Shown here in pieces: positions 10,587-47,914 of a DNA stretch of 64,000 bases. The first letter of the stretch is position 1, and every line of letters starts with the position of its first letter. Source of the stretch: Candidatus Aenigmatarchaeota archaeon (lineage in GTDB: Archaea; Aenigmatarchaeota; Aenigmatarchaeia; GW2011-AR5); the NCBI GenBank assembly GCA_016180945.1, contig JACPAG010000002.1, positions 128,210 through 192,209 of the forward strand, written 5' to 3'. Both the position numbers and the translations under genes were made by a program. The notes beneath the pieces are model-generated. The model saw nothing but the letters and a program-made list of their open reading frames with translations, ran no database searches and was not told the DNA's origin.

Positions 10587-10825
10587 TGCCCCCATCGGGA
10601 TTCGAACCCGAGCCTTAAGGTTTTAGCCGTTTTTCCGTCACAAGCAGAATGAGTGCATTCTGCTGTGCAGCAGAAGCTTTGCTTCTGCTTGCAACGCTTT
10701 TGCCGAGCAAAAGGGTTGGTCCGCAACCTCACGTCCTATCTGGAGCCTTCTTGCCCTTTTCTTTCTCCCAAGGGTCTTTCTTTTTGCGAAAAGAAAGAGG
10801 CTTATCCAAGCTAGACTATGGGGGC
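10587..10825 (-). tRNA. tRNA-Arg(GCG) with two introns (D-loop ~10739-10802; anticodon loop ~10622-10720)
   Basis: Acceptor GCCCCCA/TGGGGGC, T arm TCGGG-TTCGAAT-CCCGA, anticodon arm TGAGG-TT-GCG-GA-CCTTA; D-loop intron has BHB CT-TGGA-TAA-GCC/GGC-TCCA-GAT-AG. Confidence 0.88.
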
Positions 10826-29807: not shown

Positions 29808-30695
29808 TTAGCCTCTCTTAAGAAGTTTTCGCAGCTCCCTGGCGCTGCTCAGTTCACGGAGCTCTTTTTCTTTTATAGACGGCACGTCCAGAGAAGTTTC
29901 CTCTTTTGTTACGGCAAGAACCGGCATTTTTGCGGTTTTTGAAAACCTGAGAAGCCCTGATTCGTTTTTTTCCAGATATTCGTTGTCGCCGGCCTCTGAC
30001 AGCACGATAAACCTTTCCCTCGCTATGATATTAAATGGCGTCTGGTACACCAGTTCCGTTTCAAACCCCAGCTTGTTCATGTCCCGCGAAACGTGCATTT
30101 CAAAGGCATTTTTCGCGTCGTTTGGTTTCACATTCAGCTGAAAGTCGCTCAAAGAAAAATGTTCCATGATGCTGGCTCCAAGGGCCTTTTCCATTTTCTG
30201 CGCTGTCGTATATTCAGTATTTGCAGTACTGCGCTCATGCTCGTATACGCTTTTTTTTGTTATTTGTGCCTTGTCGGCTAACGCCCTCTGCGTCAGCTTT
30301 TCTTTTGCCCTGCCCTCCCTAAGCTTCTCTGCGTTCACTTTTACAAAAAAACCGCCGCGAAACCTGTAAAGGAAAGGGAGTTCCCTGAAAACCAGTATGT
30401 TTTCCAGCGTTTTCGGGGTTACTGTAGGAATTTCAAATCTGTCGTAGATGACACCGTTTTCCAGCGTTTCCCGCCTGGTTCTCTGCCCTATTACGAGCGC
30501 CGTGGCAGAAAGAGTCGTTGAAAGTATTTTGAGATTGTTTGCTTGGCTGAACTGCAGAGAATCGACGTTGCCCAATAATTTTAAAAGAACCATGTCCCTT
30601 TTTTTCCTGCCAACTACGTCAAAGCAGCCCGAATATTCCGAATAGTCATACTGTGCCTCTTCCAGTATGCTTATTACCTCTTCCCTGATTTCCAT
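29808..30695 (-). CDS. Archaeal Cro/C1-HTH transcriptional regulator (COG1395-like)
   Basis: CFDVVGRK..LLKLLGNVD, FYRFRGG-type segment, LTQRALA...SVYEHE HTH. Confidence 0.82.
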   Translation of the reverse strand: MEIREEVISILEEAQYDYSEYSGCFDVVGRKKRDMVLLKLLGNVDSLQFSQANNLKILSTTLSATALVIGQRTRRETLENGVIYDRFEIPTVTPKTLENILVFRELPFLYRFRGGFFVKVNAEKLREGRAKEKLTQRALADKAQITKKSVYEHERSTANTEYTTAQKMEKALGASIMEHFSLSDFQLNVKPNDAKNAFEMHVSRDMNKLGFETELVYQTPFNIIARERFIVLSEAGDNEYLEKNESGLLRFSKTAKMPVLAVTKEETSLDVPSIKEKELRELSSARELRKLLKRG

Positions 30696-30749
30696 AATCA
30701 GAGTTAGTCTGCAAAGATTTAAAATGTTATAAATGCATTTCTTAAGGTC

Positions 30750-31014
30750 GGGCCGGTAGCTCAGTATCCATCCCTTTCTTTCAAAAGAAAGGTCTGGATC
30801 AACCCCAAAGAAATATGGAAAATATTATCTTCCATAGGAACATGGGGTTGATAAGGGCGAGAACCCTAGGTTCTTGCACTTATTGGGAATTGGTAGACTT
30901 CGGCGAGATGTTTGTTGCCGAAGTTCTCGTAAGAGCACTAGTCTTATACGACAGCTGAGCTGAAAAATAATCTAAGATAACTAGCGGTCGAGAGTTCGAT
31001 CCTCTCCCGGCCCA
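30750..31014 (+). tRNA. tRNA-Ile(UAU) with canonical 37/38 intron (30949-30978) and large hairpin-rich D-loop insert(s)
   Basis: Acceptor GGGCCGG/CCGGCCC, A73; anticodon arm CTAGT-CT-TAT-A^A-ACTAG; BHB central helix CTTA/TAAG; T arm GAGAG-TTCGATC-CTCTC. Confidence 0.85.
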
Positions 31015-31090
31015 TTTAGGCTTTTCTTTTTAGAAAAAAGAAAAGACCTATGGAAAAGAAAAAATAATATTGGATATGACGCAACATAAC

Positions 31091-31122
31091 ATAATATGGC
31101 AATCGACTTGCGAAGCAAGGGG
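31091..31122 (+). repeat. Family G element, minimal form
   Basis: ATAATATGGCAATCGA-CTTGC-gaa-GCAAG-GGG. Confidence 0.65.
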
Positions 31123-47800: not shown

Positions 47801-47914
47801 GGCCGCGGTGATGTAATGGCAGCATGAAGGCCTGTGGAGGTCTTTCTTAGGAAGAAAGCCCTAGAAAGAACCGCAGCATAGTCTTCCGTCGGGGTTCAAA
47901 TCCCCGCCGTGGCC
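47801..47914 (+). tRNA. tRNA-His(GUG) with encoded G-1 and a ~42-nt 37/38 intron (~47838-47879)
   Basis: G-1:C73; anticodon arm AAGGC-CT-GTG-G^A-GTCTT; BHB-like helix CTGT/GCAG. Confidence 0.9.

Follow-up and report, generated by a model that had tools for sequence, protein, structure and literature searches.

Our analysis makes it very probable that a heavily interrupted gene in the genome of a Candidatus Aenigmatarchaeota archaeon encodes a functional tRNA-Ile with a UAU anticodon, that this tRNA is the sole decoder of AUA, and that its gene sits in the tiaS slot beside a gene of the COG1395 family, in a phylum from which the TiaS route is absent throughout. The usual archaeal route for reading AUA relies on tRNA-Ile2(CAU) and on the agmatidine that TiaS makes. 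In the mechanism that we propose, the archaeal splicing endonuclease would excise the three inserts from the primary transcript, the exons would be joined by ligation, the mature 73-74-nt tRNA would be charged by IleRS and would read AUA through U34-A pairing, and the UAU tRNA would have replaced tiaS in place, head-to-head with the COG1395 gene. The gene lies in a 64,000-nucleotide stretch of DNA, here called the window, which is C2:128210-192209 (contig and positions) of a 0.99-Mb assembly in 9 contigs (84% complete, GC about 45%), and the DNA of the window is present in groundwater metagenomes.

The gene occupies positions 30750-31014 (+) of the window, starts with GGGCCGGTAGCTCAGT and ends with GAGAGTTCGATCCTCTCCCGGCCCA. 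This stretch supplies a 7-bp acceptor stem, T8, the 5′ strand of the D-stem, the T-arm and a discriminator A, and the layout is one of four exons and three introns, with two inserts in the D-loop and one at 37/38. Exon 1 (30750-30765, +) contains the acceptor 5′ strand GGGCCGG, T8 and A9, the D-stem strand GCTC, and A14, G15 and T16; its acceptor strand pairs with CCGGCCC at 31007-31013, and relatives have the same 5′ exon. Exon 2 (30890-30896, +) is the (T)TGGTAG segment of the D-loop with G18 and G19, and it was placed on the basis of relatives L144 and L147, in which TGGTAGAGC is contiguous, and of the cloverleaf into which the spliced product folds. Exon 3 (30934-30948, +) carries the D-stem 3′ strand (G)AGC, A26, the anticodon stem CTAGT and the loop C32 T33 T34 A35 T36 A37, with the anticodon TAT at 30945-30947 (+). 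Exon 4 (30979-31014, +) provides A38, the anticodon stem ACTAG, the variable loop CGGTC and the T-arm GAGAG-TTCGATC-CTCTC, and it ends in the acceptor strand CCGGCCC and the discriminator A; CCA is not encoded. When the three inserts are removed, ARAGORN recognises the 73-74-nt product as tRNA-Ile(tat), and its cloverleaf is perfect.

In the anticodon arm, CTAGT-CTTATA is followed by the 30-nt intron C (30949-30978, +) and this in turn by A-ACTAG. Intron C is canonical, lies at 37/38 and forms a strict hBHBh′ motif under the geometry that we used, in which the central helix has 4 bp, either strand has a 3-nt bulge and the cut follows the second bulge base. Our custom BHB script (indices i=199, j=229) returned a central helix of 4 bp (4/4), an outer helix of 5 bp, which is the anticodon stem, and an inner helix of 2 bp. 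In the central helix, TAAG of the intron (30973-30976) pairs with C32-T33-T34-A35 (30943-30946), and the 3-nt bulges are TAC and ATA. The original prediction had named a tRNA-Ile with a UAU anticodon and had paired the TAAG of the intron with C32-T33-T34-A35; ARAGORN places the anticodon at the same coordinates, and the CTTA/TAAG motif at 37/38 is the predicted pairing. Directly 3′ of the gene stands a T-rich hairpin (31019-31048, +; GGCTTTTCTTTTT..AAAAAAGAAAAGACC), which is likely a trailer or terminator element.

Both ARAGORN at default settings and Rfam at its gathering threshold missed the tRNA at 30750-31014 (+) while calling the neighbouring tRNA-Val, and a whole-genome Infernal scan gave one weak partial match to it (C2:159126-159221, E = 0.4). 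The standard finders miss the gene because three introns place 191 nt of inserted sequence in it. Allowing long introns in ARAGORN produced many erroneous calls in this genome, and brute-force excision of any BHB candidates followed by ARAGORN was given up as too permissive for heavily interrupted genes, so that such genes were parsed by comparison with the sequences of relatives. Annotators should be aware that default tRNA finders overlook this locus and that an intron-tolerant ARAGORN run mislabels a nearby tRNA-Leu(CAA) as tRNA-Met.

Four hairpins form in the approximately 170 nt that separate GCTC-AGT from GAGC, and BHB scans showed that no single-intron or canonical-BHB parse of this D-loop region exists. 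Intron A (30766-30889, +), a structured insert, follows position 16; it is about 124 nt long, forms three hairpins in its MFE fold and has a 3′ boundary that is uncertain by 1 nt (T30890). Its BHB is relaxed: CTCA of the exon is paired with TGGG (30884-30887), the bulges are GTA and AAT, and there are almost no flanking helices. Relatives L144, L147 and L146 have homologous inserts at this site, each followed by TGGTAG, and the exon-adjacent helix covaries among sister introns. Intron B (30897-30933, +) is a 37-nt hairpin insert in TGGTAG^AGC, made up of ACTTCGGC...GCCGAAGT and TCTCGTAAG, with boundaries that are uncertain by 2 nt. It is unique within the genome, and the BHB scan gave no acceptable motif for it in any register. 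L144 and L147 are without it, each having one large insert after AGT and then contiguous TGGTAGAGC; the nearest relative, L146, resembles the present gene in that its first insert, a short one, is joined by a second hairpin insert in TGGTAG^AGC. The intron B stem is ACTTCGGC/GCCGAAGT here versus a compensated ACTTTTAGTAA/TTACTAAAGT in L146, which argues that the structure is maintained. Conservation of this kind suggests that inserts A and B would be removed during maturation. The genome encodes a splicing endonuclease in one EndA gene (a 205-aa ORF on contig C3; PF01974, 98.7 bits), and alpha4-type EndAs that have an additional loop are reported to go together with heavily disrupted tRNA genes in DPANN (PMC5829648). 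We also observed that the end of insert B, CTC-GTAA-GAG, makes a small GNRA-type hairpin that would sequester the D-stem 3′ strand, and that the TGGG closing intron A sequesters the D-stem 5′ strand.

Logan contigs from four separate groundwater metagenome runs span 30650-31100 and show 0 differences; with the assemblies of all four runs in agreement, T34 is genuine, as had been predicted, and is not an error of assembly. About 50 orthologues were found in related genomes beside the same neighbouring gene, all with GTCTTATA. Among 16 distinct mature orthologue sequences, the loop C32-U33-U34-A35-U36-A37 is invariant, 99.7% of stem cells are paired, and 12 of the 21 stem pairs show changes on both sides. 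None of 500 shuffled controls reached the observed pairing plus covariation, and slid controls fell to 33-54% paired. In each of the approximately 50 orthologues seen, an intron sits at 37/38 or 38/39, and its 3′ end is paired with the anticodon; the D-loop and T-loop introns of tRNA-Ile(UAU) differ from genome to genome.

We searched for the enzyme of the usual route by its domains. TiaS_FLD (PF08489) was found in 0/1 for this genome, 0/61 when 60 family and order relatives were included and 0/301 across the phylum, in a sample of 151 genera with 98 high-quality genomes; the same search was positive in all four archaeal control genomes. TiaS_TCKD (PF22641) gave nothing over the cut-off in 41 genomes. 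Our own tRNA scan recovered approximately 38 tRNA genes, most with introns and tRNA-Ile(GAU) among them, and the CAU tRNAs seen were one elongator tRNA-Met(CAU) and one initiator-like gene with A1:U72. [quoted passage not shown] One candidate for a long-arm CAU tRNA, at C2:208598-208772, was rejected, as relatives show it to be a tRNA-Leu(CAA) with the CAT hairpin inside an intron. This tRNA-Leu(CAA) has introns at 31/32 and 37/38, the first of which is a perfect decoy anticodon hairpin (CAAG-TTCATGT-CTTG) that leads ARAGORN with introns to call tRNA-Met.

AUA is the commonest Ile codon in this genome. In 533 long ORFs it amounts to 41.4 per 1000 codons and 53% of Ile, and AUG is less frequent than AUA, at 23.4 per 1000 codons. 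The only tRNA-like GTCTTATA site in the genome is the tRNA-Ile(UAU) gene, which has A73, A37 and a GGGCC acceptor resembling that of tRNA-Ile(GAU), features with which charging by IleRS would be consistent. Since TiaS is absent, no tRNA-Ile2(CAU) was found and AUA is the commonest Ile codon, the original proposal that TiaS was lost and replaced by this tRNA is supported; what has to be changed is its scope, in that the loss is a trait of the whole Aenigmatarchaeota and not of this genome alone. The accompanying description of UAU-type tRNAs as rare exceptions does not hold as worded, as they are less rare than that and have been published for other small archaea (PMC3239211, PMC8450103).

The neighbour of the tRNA gene is a COG1395/PAB2104-family gene (29808-30695, -), whose start is 54 nt from tRNA-Ile(UAU) and which runs in the opposite direction. 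Its product has a PD-(D/E)XK-like domain, an HTH_3 domain and a second PD-(D/E)XK-like domain, which in this family is degenerate; Pfam HTH_3 was matched in it, and homologues have PF26553 PDDEXK_19 plus HTH_3. An AlphaFold model (pLDDT 91) has an Xre/MBF1-type HTH between Hjc-like nuclease folds, in agreement with the published domain prediction for the PAB2104 family, which is COG1395 (PMC1189080). Sequence and fold searches of the PDB returned Xre/MBF1-type HTH and Hjc-type nuclease folds only, and nothing tRNA-specific. The divergent intergenic region (30696-30749) is 54 bp long and contains two A/T-rich boxes, GATTTAAAAT and TTATAAAT, which are TATA-like and stand back to back; one of them would serve tRNA-Ile(UAU) and the other the COG1395 gene. 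Judged by this arrangement, an HTH protein bound at the spacer could act on both genes.

To test the proposed neighbourhood of tiaS and COG1395, we searched 80 tiaS loci from GTDB genomes with 99 COG1395 homologues. COG1395 is immediately upstream and divergent in 36 of the 80, with a start-to-start distance of 33-150 nt, and lies within 4 kb in 2 further loci. The 36 paired loci come from Methanobacteriales, Methanosarcinales, Methanocellales, Methanothrix, Methanoperedens and Methanofastidiosa, plus two singletons, one Thermoplasmatales and one Hydrothermarchaeota locus; within the 80-locus set the pairing is absent from Archaeoglobi, Hadarchaeota and Nitrososphaeria. The neighbourhood of tiaS and COG1395, which the original prediction had put forward, is thus real in these 36 loci, and tRNA-Ile(UAU) has the same position here and across the phylum. 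Immediately upstream of the present COG1395 gene we find tRNA-Ile(UAU) in place of tiaS. The tRNA gene is divergent-upstream of COG1395 in 26/29 family and order loci with enough flank and in 24/30 loci of other Aenigmatarchaeota families, and in a further four of the latter it is in tandem or no farther than about 1.4 kb away. Approximately 50 of the 59 Aenigmatarchaeota loci with enough flank therefore have tRNA-Ile(UAU) in the relative position of tiaS, and the head-to-head pair recurs in 3/3 metagenome contigs of closer relatives. Start-to-start spacing of the tRNA and COG1395 is 40-55 nt. The COG1395 proteins of the tiaS and tRNA contexts align over their full length, and D26, N43, D45, G70, Y84, R86, G114-G115, R129 and E154 are invariant in both.

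Several loci were recorded in the course of this comparison. In a distant COG1395 homologue without tiaS (L032), no tRNA was found in the upstream gap. In locus L131 (relative G117), the anticodon arm of tRNA-Ile(UAU) is about 0.96 kb from the COG1395 start, and the gap holds an ORF with a LAGLIDADG-like motif (..GIHIGDGS..) that begins after a tRNA-like 5′ end, GGGCTTGTAACTC; the tRNA gene may here contain an insert that encodes a homing endonuclease. A 415-aa database protein (P0108) is listed with both PDDEXK_19 and TiaS domains in a precomputed Pfam list, and it may have come from a faulty gene call that spans the divergent pair, or the fusion may be real. We considered whether a tRNA-Ile2(CAU) beside tiaS had mutated in place, and rejected this origin: any CAT tRNA occurs within 4 kb in only 1 of the 80 tiaS loci, and with no tRNA-Ile2(CAU) near tiaS in the euryarchaeal loci, an in-place C34-to-U mutation is unsupported.

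The presence of tRNA-Ile(UAU) in the position of tiaS beside COG1395 argues that one AUA-decoding device replaced the other in place, and the pattern looks like, and is best described as, in-place displacement beside a conserved partner. It hints that COG1395 is tied to AUA decoding. We found no publication that describes the pairing of COG1395 with tiaS or with tRNA-Ile(UAU). A fuller version, in which COG1395 would be a dedicated partner of the AUA device, most simply a regulator acting at the shared promoter, and in which the UAU tRNA would have displaced tiaS non-orthologously in place, we hold only tentatively, at somewhat less than an even chance. The reading that the tRNA is functional and that its adjacency to COG1395 is a historical accident, the slot then being uninformative on COG1395, on regulation and on a swap, comes close to an even chance in our estimate. 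The adjacency is inherited and could go back to one ancient event, in the ancestry of a single phylum, and 44 of the 80 tiaS loci, such as those of Archaeoglobi, Hadarchaeota and Nitrososphaeria, do not have COG1395 adjacent. However, the chance of a given tRNA lying beside a given gene among approximately 1000 genes is about 0.002, the pairing was predicted ahead of testing, both pairings are tight (33-150 nt for tiaS and 40-55 nt for the tRNA) and kept across deep divergence, and COG1395 from one context can be aligned over its whole length with that from the other, with invariant residues in common. A further reading denies the function of the tRNA itself: the gene would be a decaying, non-functional copy with inserts A and B unspliceable, and AUA would be read by another, undetected route. 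Such a view can point to an insert B without a canonical BHB motif, an insert A with a relaxed one, and a locus that standard tRNA finders reject. We regard it as scarcely credible, since all exons are intact and covary with the orthologues, L146, the nearest relative, shows compensation in the insert B stem, inserts of this kind occur in most tRNA genes of the genome, tiaS is absent throughout the phylum, and the gene encodes the sole UAU-loop tRNA in a genome with 4% AUA codons.

With a functional tRNA-Ile(UAU) as the preferred reading, the heavy use of AUA sharpens the question of how an Ile tRNA with U34 avoids reading AUG. A haloarchaeal Ile tRNA mutated to U34 binds both AUG and AUA (PMC3895270). 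Therefore, a plain UAU anticodon is not automatically safe. One answer would be that U34 is converted before splicing to a base that pairs with A and not with G, such as pseudouridine, and that the retained anticodon-loop intron is needed for this. Eukaryotic tRNA-Ile(UAU) carries pseudouridine at 34, and yeast Pus1 makes Psi34 and Psi36 on the intron-containing precursor only, which favours such a scheme. So does the behaviour of the introns: every one of the approximately 50 orthologues keeps the 37/38 or 38/39 intron while D-loop and T-loop introns come and go, the intron of the neighbouring tRNA-Val(CAC) is present in some relatives and not in others, and the tRNA-Ile(UAU) genes of ARMAN-2 and Korarchaeum likewise have an intron (PMC3239211, PMC6000648). 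We nevertheless think this conversion unlikely, as no candidate enzyme was identified, canonical introns are common in the genome so that retention may be neutral, and Mycoplasma mobile copes with unmodified U34 and an adapted ribosome and IleRS (PMC3575796).

Further observations concern the other tRNA genes of this genome. ARAGORN at default settings and Rfam at its gathering threshold miss three more intron-bearing tRNA genes in the window, namely tRNA-His(GTG) at 47802-47914 (+) with a 42-nt intron, tRNA-Arg(CCT) at 57972-58135 (+) with an 89-nt intron, and a probable tRNA-Arg(GCG) at 10588-10825 (-) with a D-loop insert and an anticodon-loop intron. Intron A has kin in tRNA-Asn(GTT), tRNA-Ala(TGC) and tRNA-Val(TAC), where large introns occupy the same D-loop site (C3:35894-36131, C8:200350-200576 and C8:188218-188426). 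Their modules share one order: first an exon-adjacent helix, then a CCCTTTCTT..AAGAAAGG hairpin, then CCCCAAAGAA, and finally GGGA(G)AAT, which precedes the D-loop GG; the exon-adjacent helix covaries (ATCCA/TGGAT, CACAAA/TTTGT, ACCAA/TTGGT). It looks as if introns of this family had been transposed from one tRNA gene to another. Two pieces of intron A, 30783-30813 and 30843-30883, recur with 1-2 differences in far more abundant groundwater metagenome contigs, where they adjoin parts of other tRNAs (e.g., ...GGTAGAGCATCGGCCTCTTAA), so the modules are common to several organisms or loci. A T-rich hairpin of the CCTTTTCTT..AAGAAAAGG type stands directly 3′ of several tRNA genes (window 31019-31048; C2:81671-81691, C7:45795-45815 and C7:149411-149431), and the first D-loop intron module is likewise such a hairpin; tRNA trailer and intron modules may have a common origin. 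The initiator-like tRNA at C1:3690-3836 (-) has A1:U72 and AGCGGGG, apparently with at least three introns to remove, and in a tentative parse its loop is seemingly CCCATAA, with C33 instead of U33. Finally, a box, GAAACCGTAGGTGTCTTATATG, recurs directly before start codons (e.g., C2:88184, C4:168412 and C5:18913).

In Aenigmatarchaeota, then, what was published as an exception carries approximately 4% of all codons. Two unrelated decoding solutions, an enzyme gene and a tRNA gene, hold the same position beside the same conserved gene, and we consider this gene-order finding the more useful result, as the COG1395 hypothesis can be tested in genetically tractable methanogens. If a link between COG1395 and AUA decoding is true, a widespread but uncharacterised family of archaeal proteins would gain its first functional handle, and the capacity to decode AUA would by implication be under regulation.

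A tRNA-Ile(UAU) in archaea without TiaS has already been published for Nanoarchaeum, Korarchaeum and ARMAN, and it is extended here to a whole phylum. For ARMAN-2, -4 and -5 (Micrarchaeota and Parvarchaeota), tRNA-Ile(UAU) is described and tiaS and tRNA-Ile(CAU) are stated to be lacking (Fujishima et al. 2011; PMC3239211). The present case is like ARMAN in being from DPANN, in its encoded UAU anticodon, in its 37/38 intron with a strict hBHBh′ motif and in the many disrupted tRNA genes of the genome. It differs in belonging to Aenigmatarchaeota and in having two extra D-loop inserts, one without a recognisable BHB; moreover, the ARMAN EndA is a three-unit epsilon2 enzyme whereas here it is a single 205-aa EndA, and the tiaS slot beside COG1395 is unreported for ARMAN. 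Nanoarchaeum equitans and Korarchaeum cryptofilum have tRNA-Ile3(UAU) without tiaS (PMC8450103, PMC6000648), and there too a UAU tRNA replaces tRNA-Ile2(CAU), but those were published as species-level oddities, whereas here the trait is phylum-wide (TiaS 0/301) and serves the most-used Ile codon. Mycoplasma mobile also reads AUA with a UAU anticodon after loss of the enzyme that modifies C34, although it is bacterial; its tRNA-Ile2(UAU) has an unmodified U34, to which IleRS (Arg865) and the ribosome are adapted (Taniguchi et al. 2013; PMC3575796). As for the introns, the Thermoproteales tRNA genes with transposed introns (cited in PMC8450103) likewise have several introns per gene at non-canonical sites, with homologous introns in different tRNAs; the present genome, which is from DPANN, differs in having large modular D-loop introns built of hairpins that are also found 3′ of tRNA genes. 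The closest likeness in gene order is the tiaS-COG1395 pair of Euryarchaeota (COG1395 being the PAB2104 family, PMC1189080), which agrees with the present pair in its COG1395 orthologue, in its head-to-head layout and in the shortness of its spacer, except that in Euryarchaeota the partner of COG1395 is a protein gene, and here it is a tRNA gene.
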